Shown one piece after another: positions 502 to 34,861 of a stretch of DNA of 36,347 nucleotides. Below the pieces are notes generated by a model that was not told where the DNA came from, did no database searches, and saw only the letters and a list, made by a program, of their open reading frames with translations. The stretch comes from a virus (Duplodnaviria; Caudoviricetes). The stretch is taken from the IMG/VR virus record IMGVR_UViG_3300034072_000197, positions 1 through 36,347 of that record. One strand, given 5' to 3'. The position numbers were made by a program, and so were the translations under genes. The number at the start of each line of letters is the position of its first letter. Position 1 is the first letter of the stretch.

Positions 502-2141
502 GGGTTGACCTTTGCTCGGTTGGGGTAGTCGAACTCGTCAACGAACGACGAGACCGAGAATGTGTTGCTGCCAGAGGCGTTGTAGCTGGCGCTACTGGTT
601 CGTATCTTGATGCCATTGGCAAGGCGATCAGCATGGGTGCCCCATGTCACAGCGTTGCCGTTGATCGTCATGGTGTCTGGCGTACCACCCAGCCATACAA
701 ACGGGCCGTCTGCACTGGCATTTCCAGTCAACGAGCCGCTGCTAATAGGTGTGATGCTCAGATTTGCTGTGCAGAGCGGCAGGAAGCCAGTGGGGGGCGT
801 GTAGGCAAAGGGGCGTTGGCCTGCGTTGAAGTTTGCTGTGGTCGAAAACAGCCCGACATATACAAACAAACCTTGCGGCACAGAAGTGAAGCTAGGATTC
901 GACCCTGCTGATGGGTTGCCAGTTGTGCCGTAGGTGGGGGAGCCTGCATCAAACCAAGTATTGTTCCGGCCGATCCACAAACGGTTGTTGTCTGCGTCGT
1001 AAGCAAGCTGCAAAACATCACCAGCAACAATGGAGTAATTCGTAGTTGCTTGTCGCTGAGTCCCACCGCCGCTTAAAGGCGTATTCGCGGACGCGCCACC
1101 ATAAAGACCCCAGAAGTTTGCATTCCCTGCTGGAATTACAGTCAGGCTCTTGGCAGAAGCGGCAAGCCCAAACGAAGTGATGTTGTTTGACCCTGATGTA
1201 GTTCCAATGACCAGCTCGACATAGTGTTTACCTGAAGCCGGTAGCGCAAAGGTGGATCGAGTACCCCTAAAGCTCTGCGCTGCCTGACTAACTTGCAGGT
1301 TCGCGTTGGCGTGAGTGTTCGCTGTGTCCAACGGATTCAACACCGCAAAGTTATTCGTAGGTGTGTCGTCCATCCAGTCGTAAGTGACACCAGCCGTCAG
1401 ACTGATGTTTGTAGCCGTCCAGTTATTACCGTTACCGCTGGCGTCAGCCGTCAGCGTGGTCAGGGATGTGCCATCGTTGAACGGCAGATAGAACCCGTTG
1501 GTGCCATAGGTGCCGGTGTACTTCTTAGGAACCCAGACACCGTTAGCGTTAAACTCACCGAAGGAGGTAGGATCAAGAGCTTGACCGTCGATGAAGTTGA
1601 TTTCGGAGAGGTAGCCGTCAATCTGTCCACCTGACCCAGAACCATTACGACCAATTTCATAAGTGCGTGTAGCTATATCATTCCAAAAATTATTTGCTGC
1701 GTTTTGCGCCCAAATTGTGTTTGAGGAGAACGAAGTGACCTCAACGCTGTTGATGTACATACGCGCGCGATCAGCGGCGTTTGTCGCTGTAACATCGCCC
1801 ATTACGACGATGTGGTAGTGCTCAGAGGGATCTCGTAACAAAGCAGTTGACTGCTTATTCAGAATTGTCGTGCCAGCGGAAACACATGTAAAACACAGTT
1901 GGCCGTTAGACCCCGGCCCAATAAAAAGGTAGTTCAAAATACTCCCACCAGCAGTCCCAAACCAAGTCCCCTGTCCAATAGTGCCTAGCTTTGCCCAAAA
2001 ACTAATTGTGGCCTTGCCAGAAACGGTGGGAGTCCCAAATGACCTAGACAGGTGCGCAGAAGCACTTGCACGAAAGCGAAGAGACTTTTCAATCTGGTAC
2101 GCAGCACCACCTTCAGAAAAAACAGCAGGAGGGAAAATCAT
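498..2141 (-). CDS. LamG/concanavalin-A-like plus SPRY-like domain virion protein, probable receptor-binding tail component
   Basis: 547 aa, G/S/T/N-rich. Motifs SLRF..SASAHLSR, LLRDPS..YHIVV, GYLSEINFIDGQALDPTSFGE, YGTNGFYLPF, DTPTNNFAVLNPL and NFNAGQRPFAYTPPTGF. Located in the tail module with ATGA overlaps on both sides. Confidence 0.75.
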   Translation of the reverse strand: MIFPPAVFSEGGAAYQIEKSLRFRASASAHLSRSFGTPTVSGKATISFWAKLGTIGQGTWFGTAGGSILNYLFIGPGSNGQLCFTCVSAGTTILNKQSTALLRDPSEHYHIVVMGDVTATNAADRARMYINSVEVTSFSSNTIWAQNAANNFWNDIATRTYEIGRNGSGSGGQIDGYLSEINFIDGQALDPTSFGEFNANGVWVPKKYTGTYGTNGFYLPFNDGTSLTTLTADASGNGNNWTATNISLTAGVTYDWMDDTPTNNFAVLNPLDTANTHANANLQVSQAAQSFRGTRSTFALPASGKHYVELVIGTTSGSNNITSFGLAASAKSLTVIPAGNANFWGLYGGASANTPLSGGGTQRQATTNYSIVAGDVLQLAYDADNNRLWIGRNNTWFDAGSPTYGTTGNPSAGSNPSFTSVPQGLFVYVGLFSTTANFNAGQRPFAYTPPTGFLPLCTANLSITPISSGSLTGNASADGPFVWLGGTPDTMTINGNAVTWGTHADRLANGIKIRTSSASYNASGSNTFSVSSFVDEFDYPNRAKVNP

Positions 2142-3561: not shown

Positions 3562-6500
3562 TCATTGCGCGACCTGAGACGGCGGCAGATAGAACGTTTG
3601 CCCATACTCGGTCTGTGCCCGGCGCTCCATGCGGCGCAGGAAGCCCGGATTCAGCGCCTCCTGAATGCGGTACAGGATCGCGTAGTCCAGAGCCGAGCGC
3701 ACATAAAACAGGTTCATGAACGGCGTGTTGTCCAGCAGCGCCTTGAAACTCGCCGCTGCCACATCGTCACCAGTGCGGATGCGCGTCCACAGGTCGGCCA
3801 GTGTGTCGGCCACGTTGGCCACCGGTCCAGTCATTGAGCCGGAAAGCGTTTGGCCCATGCGGTTGTACTTGCCGAACAGAAAATCACCGTACAGGCCCAA
3901 GCCGCCGCCCTGGACGAACGCCGCCGCCCATGTGTTCGGGTTGTCCAGTGGGCGCGGATTCTTGCCTCGCAGCAGATCCTTGATGCTCATGGCCGCGTAG
4001 CCCATAGCGGCAGACAGTGCCATGAACGACACCAGCCCAAGCATCTCGCCACGCCCGTTACGCATGTACTCGCCCAGCGTGTCGTAACCGCGCCCGTACA
4101 CCTCACGGCCAAGCGCGGTCTGGACAAGCGCCACCGGGAAGGATTTGAACTGCCATACGAAGCGCAGGATTTCACCAACCACGGTCCCAGGCTGAGTGCC
4201 TCGCATCAGGAACGCCCTTGCCCGGGCACCCGGCTCGATGACGGCGTGGTGCATCCGGTCAATCGTCATGGCGCGCAGTGCGCCAGCCAGATCGTCCTGC
4301 AGGTTCAGGATCGCGGCGTCTGACACCTTGCGGCCAACAGAGGTGATGTATGCCTCCATTGCCGACTGCGGTATCGTGGCTAGTCCGTCAGGCGTCATGT
4401 ACATCCTGCCGTCGGCCTGATTGAGCGGAGCCAGTCGCAGCAATTCCCACTTGCCAGCGTCAATGTTGTAAAGTTGCAACATATCCCGCAGCGAGTTTGG
4501 GAGGCCATCCCATTTCTTGCTGGAGTTCTGCGCCAGGTAGTGCGAGTGCGCCAGCGCGTAGCCGTCTCGCAAGGATTCCGTCCACCAGTTCAGGCCGTTG
4601 AGCTTGAAGAACTGCTGCATGGCCCACGACATCTTGCCGCCGATCAGGTCGGGATTGTCGAAGCGGGCATAGACCGAACCAAGCGTGGACTCGTGGAACA
4701 CGCCAAGCGAGGACAGCACCTGCTGCTTTTCGCCCTTTGCGCGGCCACGGGTGACGGCGCCGATGCCGTCCAGCACGCCGCCCAGCAGGTTTTTCTTCTG
4801 GCCGAACCGCATCTCGGCGGCATAGTTCGCCAGATCGGTGACGGACGAGATCAGCGCTCCGCCCAGCCGGGACATTGAGACCCATGCGCGGGTGTTCGCG
4901 CTGATCTTGGCGGCGGTGGCGTCACCAGGGATGTTCGCGGCGCCCGTGACGTGCGCCAGCAGGTTCTCCATCTCTTTACGCTTGGAGACGAACTGTGCGC
5001 GGCGCACCGAGTCACCACGAAGCGACTCGGCATACTCATCGAACAGCCGCTGCATGGTGGCTTCAGGATTCGTGCCCAGCACCTTCAGCAAGCCCGCCGA
5101 CTTGGCTGCGTTGTCCAGTCCGGTCAGCACCAGTTCGGCCAGCCTGCCCTGTCCGAAGCGCACGTTGTACTCGTGCGCCGCGTTGCCGTCCTTGAAATAC
5201 AGCGTGCGGCTGGCGGACACCTTCTTGGCCAGGTTCTGCGTGCCACGGAACGCGACCAGATCGCTGTCATCCGTTGGCGTCTTCATGTGCAGGCCAGCCG
5301 CAAAGTCGTCGTACATGCCGCGCAGCGAGGCCATCGGGTCGGTCTCGGAGATCAGTCCAAGGCGCACCATCTTGGCGATGTCCAGGCGCGATGACACGAA
5401 CTGCACCCAGTCGGATTCACCAGCCTCGCGGATCTTGAACATGTCGTGCGTCTGCCGTGCAATGTAGCCCTTCAGATCACGAATCCATGCACCGAAGCGG
5501 TTGCGGGTGTTGCGCGCGTCGTTCTGGTACTTGTTGATGATCTCGGCCACCTGCACGGCCTCACGCGGCAGACGATCGTTGCCAGCACCATCCTTGCCCA
5601 GATTCCACAGGGCAGCGGAGATGTCGCGGTCGAAGTCGCCAGAGGTGAACACCTTGGTCAGACCCTGCTTTTCCAGGTCAGCGATCATGCCGCCCAGCCA
5701 CTCACCCCGGAACTGTTTCTGTTCGGCCTCGACCGACATGCGGCCCCCTACCCGCTTGCGCTCAGTGCCCACAAGCAGCGCGCGGAAACCCTCGAAATCC
5801 AGGCCCGGCTTGCGGAACTGGTTGACGAACGTGGCGGCCTTCATGCGGGCATTGATGTTCAGCGCCGCGTTGCGCTTCTCGATGACGGAAGCCATCTGCA
5901 GGTTGTTCGCCAGCGTGTCTGCCGCCTGCATCGCGTCGAACTGCAGGTCATTGGCCACGTCACCAGACTGCATCGCCGTGCGTGCGGTGCGAGCTACACC
6001 GCGCAGACTCTTCACCTGCTTGCGCAGTTCACCCAGCAGATTGTCGATCTCAGCCGGGGTGATGTCGGGCAGCGCCGCACGCATGGCGGCCACGGCTTGA
6101 GCGTCGTTGTCCAGCTTGTCAGCCGCAGCACGCAGCACGCCTGCGTAGGATTTCGCGCGGGCCACGGCATCGTCGTAGGGCTTCAGTTCGTCAGCTGCGG
6201 TGGATGGGTCTGGGGTTTCGCCTCGGCTGTACGCGAGCTCCAGTGGTGCGCTGCCAGCCGCCTCGCCACGTTTAGCCACATCATGCAACGCAGCCACGGC
6301 CATCGCGCGGAAATCCGCCTCTGTCAGCGTCATGCGTTCCCGTGCAGCTGCGAACGTCCTGAACGCCCATGCACGCACGGCGGCCACAATCCGCTGCACC
6401 AGCGGCAGATCAGGCGAGTTCTGCACCAGGTAGGCCAGCTGTTCCTCGCGCACCAGGTTCATCGGCGTGTCGGCAGGCACAGCAGCGCGGGCATCGTTCG

Positions 6501-9500
6501 CCCATGACTCGCCGCGCAAGATGGCGTCGTCCAGTTCGGCCAGAACGGAGTCGAACACATCAGCGCCCAGCATCTCGCGCATACCGACGTGAACGCCGAC
6601 TTCGTGCAGAACAATGCCGCGTGCCTCGGCTTCTGAGATGTTCTCGGCCACGACATAGACTGTGCCGTCTGGCGCTGTGGCCGCCTTCACGTCGGCGGGG
6701 TGCGGGCCGCCGGGGATGTCTTTCGGGGTGGCTACGATTTGGATTTGGCCGCGAGCGATTAGCGCCTCAGACGCATCGCCAAAGGACGCCTTCAGAGCGC
6801 CATCGAGAACGGCGGACGCCTGCTGTCCCTCAATGCCGCGCGAATACAAAATGTCGTTCTTGGTCGGGTCAAACGTACCACGGTTGCCCATCGCAGATTT
6901 GACCTGCGTTTCCTCGAAAGGAATGTAGACCGGGGATACGATGCTGCCGCCGCCCTTGCCTGACCAGTCAATGATGCCGTCATAGCCAAGCGACTTGAAA
7001 ACCTCAGTCACCTTGTCAGGGATGCTCGTCCAGACATAGGAACGGTCGCTGCCTTCAGCATTGAATGCGGCAACCCAGTCGCGCAGCGTGCGGGTGTTCT
7101 TGTCCCACATGTCAGCGCCGGATTGCGCCGCCCGGCTGCGATCCTTTTTGGCTGCGGCATTCAGCGCATCAACCACTTCCTGCGGAACGTCGCTGGTGAC
7201 CAGCGGCTTCTGTATGGCGATGTAGTTTTTGTAGACAGCTGGGAACTCAAGGAATGGGCTGTCAAACTGCACGTCCTTCATGGGCATGCCAGCCAGGCGC
7301 AGCACATCCATGAACTTTTCTTCGTCGTTGAACAGCGCGCCGCTCGTCAGCCACGTTTCAACAGCGGCCTTCAGCGGATTGCCCCGACGGTCATAGCCGC
7401 GCTGGGTCTGCTTCAGTTCCCACTCGTAGGCGCCAATGTCGCCGCCACCTTCTTCGTAGATGACATTGCCGTCATCATCGGTGCGGATGTCAGGAAGCCG
7501 CTGCTCGATCTTTGTCTTCACTTCAGGCGGCAGCGAATACCACGAACGGGCAACGTCAACAGGGTTGCGCTGGCCGGGGACAGTGATCTTGAACCAGTTG
7601 GAGTAATCCTGTTCCTCGTTCGACAGGCTGGTGTCAGCCTTGCCTTGCGCGTAATTCGACGCCAGAGCAGGATCGCTGGTGTGGTATGCCATCGGCCCAC
7701 TGGTGGCGCGCTTCTTCAGGAACTTCGTGCCGACTCGATCAGGACGCTTGGTGCCATGAAACGCCTCCAACAGCACCTTTTCGCCAGTCTTGAAATCATG
7801 CGTGTTCGCTGCTTCTGATGTAACAAGCGGCGCGTCGTTCGACCACTTCGCCAGGTTCTCAGCGGCCTGCTCTGGAGTGACGCGCTTCGATCCGCGCGCG
7901 TACTTAAACGCCTGATCCCCCGCCTTGATCGTGTCGTCCAGCAGTGCCATTGCCTCGGCCTCGGCCTGCTCTGCCGCGCTCATTTCCTCCCACTTCGGGG
8001 CGGCAGCGTTACGAGCGTCCACAGCCTCAGACGCGCCAACATCAGACAGCGGGCGGTTCTCCGGTGCGAAATTCGCATCAGCGCGGGCAGCCACATCGTC
8101 AACCGTGTGCGTGGCCAGGTTCGGGTCCATGCCGACGATGGCGTCCACATCCACCTCGCGGCCATCCATCATCTGCGCCACGGATGCGCGCAGGGCGGCT
8201 TCGCGGGTTTCGGGTTCAACGAACGCGGCAACCTCTCGTGCAGGCGCTTCTGCCTGAATGGCTTCACGCTCCAGCATGGCCTCGCGCTGGGCCTCCAGCC
8301 GGTCAGCCTCAGACTCGGCAAAGTCCGCACGCTGGCGGGCCTCCATCTCGGCGATCTGGTCATCAATGCGCAGAACTCGTTCGCCATTGAAGGCGCGCGT
8401 CACCATGTCCTGCGTCATGCGAATGGCTTCATCACTGCCAGATTCGATGCCAGCAGGCAGGAACCCTTCCTCTGCCAGAATCTCGGCAATCTGGTCGTAC
8501 TCGGTCAGGCCGTCGCGCTTGACCACGCCAGGCAGTTTGCGGTTCAGGCGCAGGCCGTTCTCGCCGCCCGCATCACGGGCTAGCGTCGGGTCGATGCCGC
8601 CAGCGCGGCGCAGAGCCTGCAGCAGATCGCGCCGGACGTTCGGCACTTCTGGCACGTTTTCGACCACGGCGGCAGGCGCATCCACCCGCCCAACCGGCTC
8701 CACAATCTCAGGCATCCCAGCCCGCGCAGACTCCGGAGCAATGCCAGCCTCCAGCCGCTGCTCAGGCGTCATATCCACAGCGGCGGCCATCGTCTCAGGC
8801 GTCGGGTCGATCACGGGCGCGGCACGCTGCGCACGGTAGCGCATCAGGTCGCCCAGCGCGCCGCCAAGGGTGTGCACACCACCCCCGAAGGCCGTGCCGA
8901 ATGCGATGTTCGCCATCGAGTCGTATGCCGTGTAGTCGTCGCCAAGCGACTGGCGGCCAGCGTAGTACAGCGGCTCCAGCACTGCGGTTGAGATTCCAGC
9001 ATCAGCCGCGCCAAGCAGAGCGCGGGCGCCAGTGCGGGCGGCGAAGGTTTCACCGACTGCAGCGGTGGCGGCCACGCTTTTCAGCGTTGAAATCGAACGA
9101 GTCCACGGCACGAACGCGGTGGCTAGGTTGATCGGGTCCACCATGCCAGCGCCGAACATCGCGGCACCTCGCGCCACACTGCTCAGCTCCCAAGGTGTGC
9201 GGTTGCGCACATCCTTCACTGCGGTCAGTTCGCGCTGGCGGTCAATCAGCACGTCAAGCTGCTTCTTCGTGAACACGCCATCGGCCATGCTCAGACCGCG
9301 CAAAGTCACGCCCGACTGTTTCACGATGTCCTCTGCCTCGCTAGTGGACAGCTTCGGGCCATCCTCGGACGCCATGCGTGCCTGGATATTGGCAACCGTC
9401 ACCGGCCCATAGGACTCCATCCACGCCTCGCGCACGGCGGCGTTCATCTTCTGCATGCCAGTCGGCGCAAAGTCCTGCAGCGTGGATTCCTGGGTGCCCT

Positions 9501-21403: not shown

Positions 21404-21616
21404 TCAGTCACCCTTCAGGTATTTCTCGATGAGGCGAGCGTTCTGCAATAGCTCGGCCACAGTTGTTGCCTCCGTCGTGGCATTCGCCAATCCAAGTGCT
21501 GCGTTTATCGCATCGCATCTTACGCCATAAGGCGAAGGCTCACCCGTCTGCTCGACAGCAATGGCTACCGCCTCTTGCTGGTCAGCCAAAAACTTAGCGA
21601 GCCTCGACTCGGCCAT
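21404..21616 (-). CDS. Hypothetical protein (70 aa)
   Basis: ATG 21616 (MAESRLAKFLADQQEAV...) packs tightly between its neighbours. Confidence 0.55.
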   Translation of the reverse strand: MAESRLAKFLADQQEAVAIAVEQTGEPSPYGVRCDAINAALGLANATTEATTVAELLQNARLIEKYLKGD

Positions 21617-24027: not shown

Positions 24028-24310
24028 GCTGACATTGTGGCTTACGTGCGCGAATAAATATTTCCCAAAAAAAATGGAGGAGTAGAGAAAAAAAGCTATC
24101 TGTCTTTCGCACACAAGCCACAATGTCAACATTTTGGGGTGAAAACGGGTGTTTGTTGACATTGTTGACGCTTTCAGGCTCATCCGCGAAACGCATCTGA
24201 GATGTGTTCACGAGCCTTCAAACGGCGCTTTCGCTCGTCCTCGGCCATGTTTTTGAACGTCTGGTGGACCTCCGGATTGACGAAAAACTCAGAATGTTGA
24301 CGTTGTTGAC
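24028..24310. repeat. Putative replication origin: inverted repeat around an A-rich spacer plus GTTGAC iteron-like copies
   Basis: 23-bp arms 24028-24050/24108-24130 (3 mismatches; perfect 14-bp core TGACATTGTGGCTT) flank A-tracts. GTTGACRTTGTTGAC occurs at 24155-24169 and 24296-24310. Lies at the primase 3' end. Confidence 0.6.
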
Positions 24311-26759
24311 TGAACGTTTCGACGTGTGGAGCGATCCAGCCGTAGTCCTCCAGGGCTTTCAGAACCCGCTGGCGGCGCCATTGATCCATGCCTCGCCACT
24401 GCCGATAGGCACTCACCAGGTCGCGGTTCTTGAGTACCTGAACCTCCTTGGCGAGTATGTATACGGCAATCCAGCGAACGTGTTCCAGGTCGGATGCCGA
24501 TCCCAGAATGTCGGTGTAATACGACAGCGCGTGGGGCAGTAGGAACTTGCGCATCAGGGTTTCCACGCGCTCGGCGGTGGCGCCTGAAACCTGCTGAGTG
24601 GTGGGGTAAACCGAGCGGCTGGCGCACTCGATGGTGTGAAAAGTCAGCAGCAGGCGGGCGAACAGGCCAGCCCATTTGCCAAGGTGGGACTTCAGACCGC
24701 CAGGCAGTGAGCCGAAGGTGATGAGCTCGTTGGCGAACTCGGTGATGCGCTCGCGGACAATGTGGGCAGGCTCAGAGAGGGTGACGACCTCGCCGCTGGG
24801 CACGATGGAATGCAGATGGTCGATGAGCTGGCCGTAGGCGCGCTTGACTTCGGCGTCCTCTGGGCGGTCCTGCTCACCTCCTGAGTTCTCGCCCATGATG
24901 ACCATGAAGCGCTGCATCAGGCCGTCTTCACCCATGTTGGCGGCCACGCGCTTTATCATGTCGGGCTGGATGCCGCCGACCATGCAGGCCGACCAGTTCG
25001 GAATGCTGACGTTGCCACGCATCACGCGATCCACCATGCGGTGCCCGCCGTTGTAGATCTCCAGCCAGTGAGCACGGTCCTTGTTGGCGCCCTTGCCGCC
25101 GTTGTAGGCATCCATGCTGCCGAACCAGCCCGTTAGTTCGTCCTGCACACAGAGAACGCCACGGCTGTTGTGCTTCAGGATCTCGGACAACGCCTCAATG
25201 GTCACGTCCTCCACGATCAGCCGCTCAAGCGTGGGCTGCTCTGGCGGTTGTGGCACGGGTTCCTCGTTGCGCTTGGCGGCCTTCTTTTCCTCTTTCCAGG
25301 CTTCGAGCTGCTGCTGGTACGCGCCCAACTTCTTCTCGTTGTCCTCGCACAGATCCTTGTTGATCTTCTTCAGGCGGGAGATCGCGCGCTTGAGGCTGGG
25401 CGACTTGCGCACGGACGGCGCGCCGACAATGGCGCACCACAGGCGGGCAGACTCGCGCCAACCAGTTTCATGGCGCTTGGGTTGAATCTCCAGGCCATCA
25501 TGGATCACAGCAGCGCAGGCCACCAGCGCAGGGATTGCGATCATGGCTGGAGACACACCCAGCAGCGCAGCCTGGTCGAACGCATACGCCTCAATAACCT
25601 CGGGCAGCATGCCGGGCCGCAGGGCTGGCACGGGCGTCTCGGCAAACAGGTTCAGCGGCGCACTCCACTGGGTTTCGACAGACTCACCGATGGGTTCGTA
25701 GTCGGGCACGGAGTCTGGTTCGTGTTCGGGTTCATCGACTGGCGCCAGATCGCTCGGCGGCTTCGGGTCTTCAAAGCACATCCGCACAGCGTCCAAGCCT
25801 TCGGCCACATGCAGGTCGTTGAAGTCCGTGCCGTTGCCACGGTCCACAGCCCACAGCGGCACAGCAACCAGCGCGTTCACCTGCGTGGCGGCATCGATCG
25901 CAGCTGCCATACCGGGATTGCCCTCGGTGAATGCATCGTCGTCTGCCGCGATCACGATGCTGGCCGTCGGCAGGGCTGCACGGATCTTCTTGGCAACATG
26001 CTCCAGGTTTCCGGAGTCGAACGCCACGACGGTGCAGAACCCCGTGGCCATATGGATCGACACACCCGTGGCGTAGCCCTCGCAGATCACCAGAGTGCCA
26101 TTGCGGTCAGGCTTGCCCAGCGTGGTGTATGCGCCCAGCTTCGGCGTGCCGGTCAGGTATTTTTTGGTGCCATCCGCGTGGATGACCTGCAGGCCGACCA
26201 GTGCGCCGGGGCCGTGGCGCAGCGGCACGAGGAGCATATCGCGCAGCGTGCGGGCGCCGATGCCTGAGAGCTGCTTGCGGGCCAGGTAGTTGTGGGAGCG
26301 CTCCTCTGCCGGGTGTGCTGCAGCCCACATCTTGGCGGCCTTGGCTGCGGCTTCAGCGGCCAGGCGCTCGTCCTCGGCCTGCTCCTCTTGCAACCGTTGT
26401 TCTCGCGCAACACGGCGGCGCTCGACTTCAGCAGGATCGATGGGCTTGCGGTCAGTCTCTGAGGGTTTCCAGCCGCCTTCCTTGGCCAGCGACACCAGCG
26501 TGCCAATGGACGCCTTGCGCGATGAGCCGGAGGAACGGCAGGACTTCCACACGTCACGAGCTGCGCGCGCGTCGTAGTTGCCAGCCGACTGGCTCCACTG
26601 GTCCCACGCATCGAATGCAACCTCGCCGAACTCGTCTTTCAGGACGAATGCGAGCTTCACCCATGTGTCGCGGTCCTCTACGCCGCGAACGTAGGACAGC
26701 ATGCGCTCTGCCGTCTCCAGAGAGATGGGGTCACGCGACCCCTGTGTGTTCTTATTCAT
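24180..26759 (-). CDS. Primase-helicase: PriCT-2 + TOPRIM + DUF3987 (YfjI-like) P-loop domain
   Basis: DRDTWVKLAFVLK...WDQWSQSAGNYD (PriCT-2); ICEGYATG, VVAFDSGNL, IAADDD and TDFNDL (TOPRIM); GAPSVRKS, EDVTIEAL, QDEL, GGIQP and DGLMQRF (DUF3987). Start set at ATG 26759. Confidence 0.88.
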   Translation of the reverse strand: MNKNTQGSRDPISLETAERMLSYVRGVEDRDTWVKLAFVLKDEFGEVAFDAWDQWSQSAGNYDARAARDVWKSCRSSGSSRKASIGTLVSLAKEGGWKPSETDRKPIDPAEVERRRVAREQRLQEEQAEDERLAAEAAAKAAKMWAAAHPAEERSHNYLARKQLSGIGARTLRDMLLVPLRHGPGALVGLQVIHADGTKKYLTGTPKLGAYTTLGKPDRNGTLVICEGYATGVSIHMATGFCTVVAFDSGNLEHVAKKIRAALPTASIVIAADDDAFTEGNPGMAAAIDAATQVNALVAVPLWAVDRGNGTDFNDLHVAEGLDAVRMCFEDPKPPSDLAPVDEPEHEPDSVPDYEPIGESVETQWSAPLNLFAETPVPALRPGMLPEVIEAYAFDQAALLGVSPAMIAIPALVACAAVIHDGLEIQPKRHETGWRESARLWCAIVGAPSVRKSPSLKRAISRLKKINKDLCEDNEKKLGAYQQQLEAWKEEKKAAKRNEEPVPQPPEQPTLERLIVEDVTIEALSEILKHNSRGVLCVQDELTGWFGSMDAYNGGKGANKDRAHWLEIYNGGHRMVDRVMRGNVSIPNWSACMVGGIQPDMIKRVAANMGEDGLMQRFMVIMGENSGGEQDRPEDAEVKRAYGQLIDHLHSIVPSGEVVTLSEPAHIVRERITEFANELITFGSLPGGLKSHLGKWAGLFARLLLTFHTIECASRSVYPTTQQVSGATAERVETLMRKFLLPHALSYYTDILGSASDLEHVRWIAVYILAKEVQVLKNRDLVSAYRQWRGMDQWRRQRVLKALEDYGWIAPHVETFSQQRQHSEFFVNPEVHQTFKNMAEDERKRRLKAREHISDAFRG

Positions 26760-26789
26760 GCCCTGGTCAATGAACTGGCGACGAAAGGT

Positions 26790-26847
26790 GGGGCGGGCCT
26801 CGCCAGGGTCGGCCCTTGTCATTCGGTAGCTAGCCGGATCAAGCCCC
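26790..26847 (-). ncRNA. Putative cloverleaf (three-way junction) leader RNA upstream of the primase, c4/CI-antisense-like architecture
   Basis: Outer stem GGGGC/GCCCC, hairpin AUCCGG-CUAGCUA-CCGAAU, linker GACAA, hairpin GGGCC-GACCCUGGCGA-GGCCC. TATACT -10 box at 26859-26854 would start transcription at about its 5' end. Confidence 0.5.
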
Positions 26848-26894
26848 GGAATCAGTATAAGCGAATTTTCTGTGGTGATGCGAAATTCTCAACG

Positions 26895-27011
26895 TCAAAA
26901 CGGCGCATCGGGGAGATTCGGCGGCGTACGCGGCTGGCGCTTTGGTTTGTACGGCACAGGCTTATAGACCGGGAACGGCCAGTTGTTGGGTGCGGGGTGC
27001 GGGTAGTTCAT
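26895..27011 (-). CDS. 38-aa proline-rich peptide (not in the ORF track)
   Basis: MNYPHPAPNNWPFPVYKPVPYKPKRQPRTPPNLPDAPF. Fills an intergenic gap; TACAAT lies 6 nt before the ATG and there is no SD. Confidence 0.55.
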   Translation of the reverse strand: MNYPHPAPNNWPFPVYKPVPYKPKRQPRTPPNLPDAPF

Positions 27012-27063
27012 GCTGTGATTGTATGCGTTTAACTCAACACAACAGAATGCCCACGCAGAACAC

Positions 27064-27387
27064 TCAGGAATCCACCAGCCTCACCGCATCCTCAACCGAC
27101 CGGGCAACGCCAGCGATTGCGCCGCGCGCCCGCATGGCATCGATGAACCGCTGCTGTTCTGGCCGTATGCGCCCGGTCGGGGTTTTCACTTCGATGTAGA
27201 ACGCCTTGGAATCCTCGCGGCGGTGCCCGAACAGGTCGGAGAACCCGGCAGGCAGACCAGTGGAGACTGGCCGCCCGTCCTTCGTGAAGAACAGACCGAC
27301 GTTCGCGCGCGCGACGAAGTGCCCAGCCGCCGACAGCGCGACCATTATCTGGCGCATCAGGTCGCCTTCAGTCTTAGGTTTTTCCAT
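27064..27387 (-). CDS. VRR-NUC domain nuclease (resolvase-like)
   Basis: TEGDLMRQI, RANVG, GLPAGFSDL, FYIEVKTPTGRIRPEQQRF and GVARSVEDA (PD-(D/E)xK). Start ATG 27387. Confidence 0.9.
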   Translation of the reverse strand: MEKPKTEGDLMRQIMVALSAAGHFVARANVGLFFTKDGRPVSTGLPAGFSDLFGHRREDSKAFYIEVKTPTGRIRPEQQRFIDAMRARGAIAGVARSVEDAVRLVDS

Positions 27388-29645: not shown

Positions 29646-29759
29646 AATTCACAACGGTGTTGATACAAGCGCAATTATGCAGGAATCTCAACGCTGTTGC
29701 AATCGTGGCACCGTTTCTGTATTTTCCAGCGCACGCCATAGGAAACCGCTGGATAGCCC
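29646..29759. promoter_or_regulatory. Divergent immunity region with three tandem operator-like 17-mers and the cro promoter
   Basis: 17-mers at 29659-29675, 29676-29692 and 29696-29712. Minus strand TTGCAA (29702-29697)-N17-CATAAT (29679-29674). Confidence 0.7.
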
Positions 29760-30351: not shown

Positions 30352-30431
30352 GTTGCGTGTTGGCAACGCGGGTAAACGATAGTCTGAATGTGTTGCGGTT
30401 TTCTCGCTGATGGTGTTATTATCTCAACACC
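30352..30431 (+). promoter_or_regulatory. Early rightward promoter with operator-like motifs
   Basis: TTGCGG-N18-TATTAT with an extended TG. Motifs at 30352-30367 and 30412-30428. The 21-mer 30411-30431 is identical to 34841-34861. Confidence 0.65.
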
Positions 30432-31582: not shown

Positions 31583-32533
31583 ATGGCCACCCAAATCATC
31601 CAACCCAGCAGTCAGGAACACTGGCTCCAGATGCGCACGCAGGACGTAACGTCCACCGAGTCCGCAGCGCTGTTCGGCATGTCGCCCTACGTGACGCACT
31701 TCGACCTCTGGCACCGCAAGCGCTCAGGCGTCGTGCCTGAATTCACCGTCAACGAGCGAATGAAGTGGGGGAACCGCCTGGAGTCGGCCATCGCCCACGG
31801 CATCGCCGAGGAACAGGGCTGGGAGATCCGTCCCATGAAGGAGTACATGCGCGATCCCGACGCGCGCATGGGCAGCTCGTTCGATTTCGTCATCACCAGT
31901 CTGGGTGAGCCTGTCCACTTGGAGATCAAGAACGTGGACTATCTGGCCTTCAGAGATGGCTGGATCGAACACGACGACGGCACGCTGGAGGCCCCTGAGC
32001 ATATCGAAATGCAAGTCCAGCACCAGATGGCCGTCAGCGGATTCAAGCGCGCGTTCATCGGCGCCTTTGTGGCTGGCAACCGTGGCGTCGTCATCGAGCG
32101 CCATCGCGACGAGGATGTGATCCGCGCCATTCGCCACCGCGTGTCCGAGTTCTGGCGATCCATCGAGGACAACCGCGAGCCGGAACCCGTGATGCCTGCC
32201 GACGCCGAGGCCGTCATCCGACTGAACCAGTACGCCCAACCGGGCAAGGTGATCGACGCCAGCGGTGATGCGAATATCGCTGCACTGGTGGAGGAATACC
32301 GACAGGCCAGCAACGCCGAGAAGAACGCAGCCGAAGACAAGGAAGTCGCCAAGGCGCGGCTGCTGGAAGCCATCGGTGACGCCGAGAAAGTCATGCTGCC
32401 AGGCTTCACCATCAGCGCCTCGATGATTGCTGAAACGCCGCCGACACTCATCACGCCGGAGATGGTCGGCCAGTCCTACGGTGGGCGCAAAGGTTATCGC
32501 AACCTGCGAGTCAACGTAAAAAAACAGAAGTGA
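31583..32533 (+). CDS. YqaJ-like viral recombinase exonuclease
   Basis: WLQMRTQDVTSTESAALFGMSPY, WGNRLE, SSFD, LEIKNV and QVQHQMAV. Upstream of RecT. Confidence 0.9.
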   Translation: MATQIIQPSSQEHWLQMRTQDVTSTESAALFGMSPYVTHFDLWHRKRSGVVPEFTVNERMKWGNRLESAIAHGIAEEQGWEIRPMKEYMRDPDARMGSSFDFVITSLGEPVHLEIKNVDYLAFRDGWIEHDDGTLEAPEHIEMQVQHQMAVSGFKRAFIGAFVAGNRGVVIERHRDEDVIRAIRHRVSEFWRSIEDNREPEPVMPADAEAVIRLNQYAQPGKVIDASGDANIAALVEEYRQASNAEKNAAEDKEVAKARLLEAIGDAEKVMLPGFTISASMIAETPPTLITPEMVGQSYGGRKGYRNLRVNVKKQK

Positions 32534-32545
32534 ACGTGTTATTCA

Positions 32546-32572
32546 GTGTTATACTGATGCGGAATTCTCAAC
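32546..32572 (+). promoter_or_regulatory. Extended -10 promoter and operator-like motif before the recT unit
   Basis: TGtTATACT (-10 at 32550-32555) followed directly by GATGCGGAATTCTCAAC (32556-32572), one mismatch from 26877-26893. Confidence 0.6.
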
Positions 32573-32585
32573 ACAAGGAAGCAAG

Positions 32586-32816
32586 ATGGCCAACATTGAA
32601 GTCAAGGAGTTCTCAAGAACTTCATCGCTCCACGTCAATGCGCTCAATAGCCCGACGTTTGGCGCGCTCGTTACTCTCAGCCAGAACTCTGGCAGCCTGT
32701 CATTCACGTTCTGCATGACGCCAGAGCAGGCCCGCTACATGGCGTCCGCCCTGATGGCTCAGGCCGCCAAAGCAGATGCCGCCGCAACCCCCGCAACCAC
32801 CAAGGAAACAGCATGA
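32586..32816 (+). CDS. Hypothetical protein
   Basis: 76 aa with AAGGA RBS and an MTPEQAR motif. Confidence 0.7.
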   Translation: MANIEVKEFSRTSSLHVNALNSPTFGALVTLSQNSGSLSFTFCMTPEQARYMASALMAQAAKADAAATPATTKETA

Positions 32817-33646
32817 GCAACGCACTCGCAGAGATTCGCCCGGCCATCGAGAAGATGGCCCCTCAGTTCAAAGCCGCCCTGCCCGCACACATCCCGGTTG
32901 AGCGCTTCGTTCGCACCACACTGACCGCCGTGCAGACGAACCCGGAACTGATTAACGCCGACCGCCGCACTCTGTTTGCGTCGGCCACCCGCGCCGCGCA
33001 GATGGGCCTGCTGCCTGATGGCCGCGAGGGCGCCATCGTGACGTTCGGCGGCAAGTGTCAATTCATGCCGATGCTGGGCGGCGTGCTGAAGCTGGTGCGC
33101 AACTCTGGCGAACTGGCTTCGATTGACGCCCAGATCGTTTACAAGAACGACAAGTTCACCTACCGACCGGGCATCGACCTGGTGCCAGCGCACGAGCCGG
33201 ATTGGTTCGGTGACCGAGGCGACATCGTTGGCGTGTACGCCGTGGCTAAGATGAAGGACGGCGCTGCCTACGTGGAGATCCTGTCCAAGAAGCAGGTGGA
33301 GCAGGTGCGCAATGTGAGCCGCGCCAAGTCATCCGGCCCGTGGGTGACGTGGTGGGACGAGATGGCCCGCAAGACCGCCATTCGCCGACTGGCTAAGCGC
33401 CTGCCGCTGTCCACCGATCTGGACGGCGCACTGGCCGAGGACGACGATCTGTTCATGCCGCCTGAGCCTGTGGCGCAAGAACAGACACAGCAGGCACCAG
33501 AGCAGGAAGCCGCACCGCGCCGCCCATCTCGCCTGCAGAAAGTCGCCGAGGCCGCGCCTGAGCCTGCCGTTACGCCGCTGGACGATGACGGCGTGATCGA
33601 CGTGGACGCCACGCATATGGCTGAAGAGGCTGACAGCCCGATCTGA
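32813..33646 (+). CDS. recT: RecT-family single-strand annealing protein
   Basis: ALPAHIPVERFVR, AAQMGLLPDG, GVLKLVRNSG, SGPWVTWWDEMARKTAIRRLAKRLPLS and an acidic tail. Confidence 0.93.
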   Translation: MSNALAEIRPAIEKMAPQFKAALPAHIPVERFVRTTLTAVQTNPELINADRRTLFASATRAAQMGLLPDGREGAIVTFGGKCQFMPMLGGVLKLVRNSGELASIDAQIVYKNDKFTYRPGIDLVPAHEPDWFGDRGDIVGVYAVAKMKDGAAYVEILSKKQVEQVRNVSRAKSSGPWVTWWDEMARKTAIRRLAKRLPLSTDLDGALAEDDDLFMPPEPVAQEQTQQAPEQEAAPRRPSRLQKVAEAAPEPAVTPLDDDGVIDVDATHMAEEADSPI

Positions 33647-34809: not shown

Positions 34810-34861
34810 CGTGTAAAAAACAACACATGCGTGAGTAAAGTGGTGTTATTATCTCAACACC
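34810..34861 (+). promoter_or_regulatory. Second early promoter/operator copy
   Basis: TGGTGTTATTATCTCAACACC (34841-34861) is identical to 30411-30431, in an AT-rich gap. Confidence 0.65.

Follow-up and report, generated by a model that had tools for sequence, protein, structure and literature searches.

A conserved three-way-junction leader RNA before phage primase genes is a probable diverged variant of a catalogued RNA kind, with a predicted translational mechanism

The window, by which we mean the whole stretch of 36,347 nucleotides analysed here, is a linear virus record that is 94% complete. By PHROGs, its gene content includes terminase, head, tail, RecE/RecT-like, repressor-like and excisionase-like functions. 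No integrase is found in the window despite the repressor-like and excisionase-like genes, and one may lie in the missing 6% past the right end. The leader RNA considered below is flanked by a VRR-NUC-type nuclease gene and by a primase-helicase gene (Table 1). The primase itself is a mosaic: one related protein (P0041) is 92% identical across the N-terminal 41% and has a different helicase domain, and another (P0003) is 80% identical across the C-terminal 82% and has a different N-terminus.

Table 1. Features of the primase gene and its leader in the window; a second range gives the opposite side of a stem
Feature	Position	Strand	Basis or remark
Primase-helicase, 859 aa (PriCT-2, Toprim, DUF3987)	24180..26759	-	Pfam, PHROGs, N-termini of homologues, starts in relatives
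Site 2, CCAGGG	26761..26766	-	pairs loop positions 3-8; separated from the AUG by 1 nt
Site 1, UCGCCAG (putative decoy)	26775..26781	-	pairs loop positions 5-11
Pyrimidine-rich linker from P1 to site 1, 8 nt	26782..26789	-	7-12 nt in 44/52 relatives
Three-way-junction RNA, 58 nt	26790..26847	-	covariation in relatives, RNAalifold, model R1
P1	26847-26843 with 26794-26790	-	5 bp
P2	26839-26834 with 26826-26821	-	stem of the three-way junction
P2 loop, CUAGCUA	26827..26833	-	YUNR U-turn motif, self-complementary UAGCUA; predicted kissing loop
P3	26815-26811 with 26799-26795	-	stacks on P1, no linker
P3 loop, GACCCUGGCGA, 11 nt	26800..26810	-	complementary to both downstream sites
-10-like hexamer, TATACT	26854..26859	-	spacer of 6 nt to the first G of the RNA
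Operator-like imperfect palindrome, 17 bp	26877..26893	-	upstream of the -10 box; predicted

The primase start is the AUG at 26759, and close homologues begin at the equivalent position. Another AUG, at 26822, lies inside the RNA junction in frame with the primase and is used by one database gene call (P0002, P0041). By hand arithmetic, the codon equivalent to it is out of frame in the relatives L001, L152 and L164 (67, 65 and 61 nt to the start, respectively), and in other relatives it is GUG, CUG or CCG. Because this codon is shifted or mutated in relatives, and because homologues begin at the equivalent of 26759, the leader region is non-coding. A preliminary description of this DNA had kept open a primase start at 26822, with the region coding; that option fails, since the equivalent codon is not conserved in frame.

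Folded to minimum energy, 26847-26790 gives the three-way junction of Table 1. The preliminary description had placed the TATACT box, the 58-nt junction, its loop, both complementary sites and the AUG, and all of these coordinates were correct. It had also described the two pairings as mutually exclusive, and they are: they use loop positions 5-11 and 3-8, which share bases, so a single loop can engage only one site at a time. Taken singly, the sequence does not fold more stably than shuffled versions of itself, whether as the 58-mer (z = 0.08) or over 121 nt (z = 1.41), and the evidence for the fold therefore comes from relatives.

In L001, whose primase is the closest relative (66% identity), the leader recurs with one P3 pair flipped and both sites retained. 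A first, loose pattern returned about 120 loci, all of them noise except L130, which carries a different P3 loop with correspondingly different sites. Structure-agnostic patterns were run over viral contigs, metagenomes and GTDB; 110 matches passed a pairing filter, 53 were distinct over the core plus 50 nt, and removal of one that has no P3 (L186) left 52 copies, many of which are close relatives, so that counts over them are not counts of independent events. Later scans added further copies (L318, L341, L351 and L392). Across 39 aligned cores, 99% of cells are paired, with changes on both sides in 5/5 P2 pairs and in 3/3 outer P3 pairs; the covariation score of these 39 sequences was reached by 0/500 shuffles and approached by no slid register, and RNAalifold recovers the same three-way junction from the relatives unprompted. 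The original claim of a cloverleaf leader is thus backed by its relatives.

Since P1 and the junction bases had been preset by the search patterns, a second set of 80 class B primase loci was drawn through protein homology alone. A model of the RNA (R1), which gives the window copy 76 bits and finds no other in the window, detects the RNA in 19 of these 80, each time just before the start; three more have a form with a short P2, and most of the others have a plain hairpin. All told, 58 of the 80 loci have neither an R1 match nor the short variant, so the RNA is dispensable in many relatives. An alignment of 15 rows (14 protein-found copies and the window) shows the 9-27 pair changing from A-U to G-C in six rows and the fifth P1 pair flipping in two, and U6, G8 and G28-A29-C30 are invariant throughout it. 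A tRNA-like reading (acceptor-like P1 plus ACC) was rejected because the ACC is not retained in protein-found copies, as was a k-turn-like tandem GA at the junction, because 9-27 acts as a Watson-Crick pair. Set against covariation of this strength, the reading that the region is coding or its fold a product of chance, for which one might cite the in-frame AUG adopted by a gene call and the ordinary stability of the single sequence, is so improbable that it can for practical purposes be set aside.

The RNA is single in 39/39 records and always lies directly before a gene. The primases encoded downstream fall into five or more architectures (PriCT-2, Toprim, Prim-Pol, DUF927 and VapE-type); behind other copies are Dam, N6/N4 and C5 methylases and two ORFs that have no Pfam match. 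As the RNA precedes many unlike primases and three kinds of methylase, it probably does not take the regulated protein as its ligand. Methylase genes directly behind the RNA occur in G019 (~32400-32870; L283:12416-12873), L185, L201 and L157, and the one in G019 lies between RNA and primase and overlaps the primase start, which suggests insertion into a leader-primase unit.

Carriers among described phages proved hard to find. Four leader variants compared by blastn with 50,697 annotated phages gave one 26-nt chance match and nothing else, R1 matched neither five annotated phage loci with related primases nor L002, and no cultured carrier was found. Six of the seven pattern matches in GTDB were coding-sequence look-alikes lacking the fold; the seventh, on a 6-kb contig of a Polaromonas MAG (L226), is a true copy, and R1 found no other in 150 further genomes of that MAG's order. 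There are also other elements at the same position. In many class B primase loci (among L415-L444), a GC-rich plain hairpin with a U-run stands immediately in front of the ribosome-binding site, at the place taken in others by the three-armed RNA, and the two look interchangeable. In L476, L477 and L480 (~780-880, plus strand), class B primases are preceded by a different element of variable inner length, with a G-run and AAA at its opening and GUACCCCC at its close, for which Rfam gave no match at E <= 0.05.

The P3 loop falls into six classes among the 52 copies (24, 22, 2, 2, 1 and 1). Two Watson-Crick loop-site helices of at least 5 bp lie within 60 nt downstream in 41/52 copies, and loop-site pairing reaches p <= 0.05 against 200 dinucleotide shuffles each in 39; the remaining 13 (L201 and 12 copies of class B) fail against shuffles when Watson-Crick pairs alone are counted, and these rely on G-U pairs. 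In the window, the best two helices (7 + 6 bp) exceed 200/200 shuffles of the 60 nt downstream (p = 0.005). Loops placed on leaders of their own class score 10.2-14.0, against 5.2-11.5 on other classes, with one inversion (the D2 loop scores 11.5 on class A leaders versus 10.5 on its own) between two classes that share most of the loop. Inspection by eye of the short variants L455, L473 and L481 revealed a seventh loop class, again with sites to match. The claim of two loop-complementary sites at the primase start is upheld by this covariation of the loop with both sites across six classes, and the covariation among leaders of homologous primases that had been proposed as a check on it was found.

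The loop uses its 3' end for site 1, which is located 7-12 nt after P1 in 44/52 copies; pairing with site 2 is shifted to the 5' side of the loop, and 0-9 nt lie between the end of site 2 and the start in 51/52 (the geometry script mis-assigned L130 and placed the start of L193 one base off). In class A, which includes the window, site 2 abuts the AUG and is not a normally spaced Shine-Dalgarno sequence, whereas in the other classes it overlies the first part of a Shine-Dalgarno sequence (GAGG or GGGG); it falls within the ribosome footprint. Helix energies in the window are -11.1 kcal/mol for site 1 versus -10.0 kcal/mol for site 2, and in several class A copies pairing with site 2 is at least as strong as with site 1. 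Linkers of 30-38 nt occur in five copies, and the insert folds out as a hairpin in L211 and L147. There is also a natural variant with a masked decoy (L176:264-300, minus strand; also L205), in which a 21-nt insert after P1, carrying a copy of the 3' half of the loop, folds with site 1 (z = -3.2). A search of the window for other trans targets of the form CCAGGG-(N)-ATG found one, at 4925 (plus strand), opposite a long minus-strand gene. Judged from its sequence, the leader is likely to be an RNA switch acting on translation of the initiator, and we consider it highly likely that the P3 loop, by whatever route, governs translation by acting at site 2.

The catalogued RNA that the leader most resembles is int-alpA, a motif reportedly due to Weinberg et al. 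2017. It is entered in Rfam as RF02996 and typed 'Gene; sRNA'. The accessible part of the main text of PMC5737381 does not name int-alpA, and in the accessible parts of PMC12370729 and PMC13612085 it appears just as a table entry or in gene names. The supplement to Weinberg 2017 may already describe the loop-tail pairing of int-alpA; a described function for an int-alpA-type leader was not found in the literature, of which few subscription papers were covered. The window RNA does not match RF02996 at the gathering score (35.8 bits) or at E <= 10, nor do 16 relatives at E <= 0.5, and the short-P2 variants L473 and L455 score 33.9 and 33.0 bits, just below the cut-off. For comparison, 90 int-alpA loci were taken from three samples of 151 genomes, 30 loci each, 89 of them above the cut-off. 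One contig (G215:C26 2650-5157) has three int-alpA matches within 2.5 kb.

In both int-alpA and the leader family, hairpins P2 and P3 branch from a three-way junction that is followed by a pyrimidine-rich tail; J1/2 is of the UAG type, and the P2 loops are of the CUGAUCC, UAGCU-type and GACG kinds. By eye, in most of the 90 loci, the int-alpA P3 loop, like that of the leader family, matches one site after the pyrimidine run and a second at the ribosome-binding site, here the Shine-Dalgarno sequence. That said, the two differ in several respects. P1 has 5 bp in the window RNA and 8 in int-alpA (a few relatives, L246 and L451, have an 8-bp P1), J3/1 is absent from the window RNA and 2 nt long in int-alpA, and J2/3 is GAC(A/G)N in the leader family (GACAA in the window) versus GAAAA. 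Class A loops target CCAGG beside the AUG, whereas int-alpA loops target AAGG-type Shine-Dalgarno sequences; unlike int-alpA, the window RNA has its own -10-like box directly before P1, and the genes downstream of the leader family are primases and methylases. Of 33 family loci, 13 had their RNA picked up at E <= 1 by a model (R2) built from 19 int-alpA copies alone; the best E-value was 0.001, two further matches were off target, and the window copy was missed. R1 matches 0/26 int-alpA or short-variant loci. Given the bridging variants near the cut-off and the layout, P2 loops and two sites held in common, the leader RNA appears to be a diverged int-alpA-like subfamily, probably of the same ancestor, though it falls below the score for formal membership.

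The other loop of the junction has a different property. The P2 loop fits YUNR in 52/52 copies and has a palindromic centre in 50, being broken in L137 and L154; the centre alternates between GAUC and AGCU, with all four bases changed, and no covarying partner of this loop was found within 120 nt downstream of the 52 copies. By hand count, 49 of the 90 int-alpA P2 loops contain a palindromic 4-mer, 35 have GACG and 6 have neither. The palindromic cores are eight (GAUC, AGCU, GGCC, CAUG, CGCG, UGCA, UCGA and AAUU), and 17 of the 23 distinct P2 loops other than GACG are palindromic. A random 7-nt loop contains a palindromic 4-mer about 23% of the time, so that with each core counted once (8/14) hand arithmetic gives p ~0.006. 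Many of the predicted P2-P2 kisses would be merely 4 bp. In murine leukaemia virus (MuLV), according to the accessible part of PMC5874298, GACG tetraloops make loop-loop contacts, and palindromes and GACG tetraloops are the two loop types that pair its RNA copies; YUNR loops, in what is available of PMC6562991, present bases for fast RNA-RNA pairing. The P2 loop keeps its self-complementarity yet cannot pair with itself within one molecule, and this conservation points to pairing between two copies of the RNA.

These observations can be assembled into a self-dosing brake on primase translation, which we favour tentatively, at just under an even chance. Transcription would begin at or just before P1, and in the nascent leader the P3 loop would first pair with site 1 in cis, forming a pseudoknot over the stacked P1/P3 helix. 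This pairing would leave site 2 and the start codon free, so that primase could be made while the RNA is scarce. As copies accumulate, either as leaders or as short products ending in the U-run, two of them would kiss through their P2 loops, and the P3 loop of the docked partner would cover site 2 and shut translation. How much primase is made would thereby depend on how many phage transcripts or genomes the cell contains. Several findings weigh against such a brake. The short RNA is a prediction, a terminator scan of the window called none after P1, and the U-run is just 3-5 nt; the palindrome is lost in the copies named above and in the 6 int-alpA loops of neither type; the long-linker variant L176 masks site 1; and most class B primases do without the RNA.

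The switching could also take place within one transcript, the loop moving between site 1 (open) and site 2 (closed) as a purely cis two-state switch or timer. Such a device would keep basal translation low or confine it to a brief period, with the P2 loop serving folding or stability, and it would suit the fixed linker and site spacing as well as the occurrence of one copy per record, always directly before the gene. We consider it unlikely, though deserving real weight, because it leaves unexplained why P2 is self-complementary through eight different cores, and because nothing visible would toggle the two states. Rather less probable is a riboswitch-like or protein-toggled arrangement in which the junction binds a small molecule or host protein that chooses between the pairings: the invariance of U6, G8 and G28-A29-C30 speaks for it, but the invariant bases are few, P1 length and junction differ in int-alpA, and the palindromic loop would not be needed, so that we regard this as quite improbable.

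The data are compatible with either sign of the effect, and formation of a dimer could as well switch translation on. A lone loop would then rest on site 2 (off), and a second copy would hold the loops on site 1 (on), by analogy with the short form of IsrK, an RNA of Gifsy-1. An activating dimer draws on the same sequence evidence as the brake, has the precedent of IsrK, and would accord with those class A copies in which site 2 pairs as strongly as site 1 or more so; yet site 1 is made first and is the stronger in the window, favouring an open default, and we think this version improbable, if slightly less so than the ligand-toggled one.

Parallels to the two-copy brake exist in other systems. 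IsrK, in the accessible part of PMC4825925, is a 5' element present in the mRNA that may act on its own mRNA in trans, like the window RNA, and is a precedent for a short isoform acting in this way; it possesses a terminator, and its activation works by refolding and by way of an upstream ORF, whereas the window RNA has a two-site loop target and a self-complementary loop, and Rfam scans gave no match of the window RNA to IsrK. The repZ leader of ColIb-P9 (IncI), as far as PMC4705826 is accessible, likewise has a loop that pairs with a short site near the ribosome-binding site of an initiator gene, and competition sets the initiator dose. There, the pseudoknot activates and needs a leader peptide, and the competing Inc RNA is an antisense transcript of the other strand; the window RNA has two sites, its predicted partner is a copy from the same strand, and no conserved leader peptide of the IncI/IncB type was found, the sole upstream AUG being conserved neither in frame nor in identity. 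Both loop types of the retroviral dimer-linkage region (the palindromes of MuLV SL-A/B and the GACG of SL-C/D, as given in the part of PMC5874298 available) occur at P2 of the superfamily, but they serve dimerisation of a genome for packaging, the window RNA is an mRNA leader of a dsDNA phage, and the likeness is an analogy only.

Extended to the whole int-alpA superfamily, the brake would be a portable, RNA-only counter. A dimer formed through the self-complementary or GACG loop would put a second P3 loop on the ribosome-binding site that the decoy-held first loop leaves open; phages could in this way sense their own transcript or genome number and cap their primase, and the loop sequences would be private channels between co-infecting phages. 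We advance this wider reading with more reserve than the brake itself and regard it as possible rather than probable. The int-alpA kind is in any case extended to a subfamily missed by Rfam, before replication initiators of mostly non-integrating phages, and an orphan Rfam motif gains a concrete, testable mechanism. If the two-copy model is true, it represents feedback control through homodimerisation of an mRNA leader, for which no description in phages was found in the literature (few subscription papers covered), and it offers synthetic biology a programmable part of 60 nt that limits dose. If the cis switch alone is true, the leader nonetheless counts as a new element controlling phage primase translation.

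The preliminary description had compared the RNA with the branched antisense RNAs of phages P1, P7 and P4. The likeness is that C4 of P1/P7 (RF01695) and CI of P4 are branched phage RNAs whose loops act on two short targets and control replication or antirepressor genes; the P4 CI targets are seqA and seqC in the summary accessible in PMC4825925. Membership in a c4/CI-type family is not borne out: none matched the window RNA at the gathering score or at E <= 10, a search against Rfam returning for the window just chance matches at that threshold, and the C4 antisense RNA and c4-2 models matched neither the window nor the relatives tested. C4 rows in the accessible part of the Weinberg 2010 supplement (PMC2864571) are ~85 nt, with a long closing stem and P2 mostly capped by a tetraloop. 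P4 CI is processed out of a longer precursor and has a target on either side of it, whereas both targets identified for the window RNA lie downstream. Unlike CI, the window RNA appears to be the 5' end of its transcript; it begins 6 nt after the -10-like box, leaving no room on that transcript for an upstream target.

The alternative offered originally, an RNA switch or a trans-acting immunity RNA, has come apart into its halves. The switch is supported by a loop that covaries with both sites; general immunity is not, because a tyrosine integrase is present in 1/39 carrier records and in 1/11 near-complete ones (G034), and lysogen immunity cannot be the general function when 10/11 near-complete carriers are without one. 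The same 11 have no serine recombinase (0/11) and no ParA (0/11), and six encode HTH_3 (6/11); two class B genomes encode DNA polymerase A. A C4/CI-like RNA that is released from the leader and silences incoming relatives in lysogens by termination could use the loop classes as specificity groups, and might suit the window, with its repressor-like and excisionase-like genes, or the integrase-bearing G034. Against the scarcity of integrases, recombinases and ParA, the polymerase of class B carriers, the unmatched Rfam C4 and the downstream position of both identified targets, we judge it very improbable.

There remains the matter of how the leader is transcribed. A -10-like hexamer (A2, T6, at least 4/6 matches) precedes 50/52 copies, with a spacer of 6-7 nt in 39/52 (the best of ten spacers, as raw counts). 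A simple sigma-70 scan did not call a promoter before the RNA in the window, there being no -35 at 16-18 nt, and a consensus scan of 26500-27200, of a kind that cannot exclude one, found no promoter-like site on the plus strand from which a counter-transcribed RNA of the IncI/IncB type might start. The operator-like palindrome of Table 1 has a near-identical 17-bp copy at 32556-32572, beside another TATACT box, and a weaker one at 29678-29692, between divergent HTH genes; with search patterns derived from these same sites, their chance counts are partly circular. A similar box lies upstream of the RNA in many relatives; in G019 it recurs over a second -10-like box (2 matches versus 0.09 expected, one by construction). 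Repressor control of the leader promoter is plausible from this arrangement. The suggestion that the RNA controls the initiator independently of CI consequently finds no support, because a candidate operator sits at the promoter region's upstream edge and has a counterpart next to a second early promoter.

Two identical 20-nt stretches, promoter-like and palindromic around TATTAT, lie at 30411-30430 and 34841-34860 (plus strand), with a CTCAAC half-site common to the boxes at 26877 and 32556; together with the 17-bp boxes they likely make up a repressor regulon. The symmetric 17-bp box has additional matches at 4191-4207, 8063-8079, 8987-9003 and 21498-21514, within late genes, and at 27022-27038, in the same intergenic region as the RNA.
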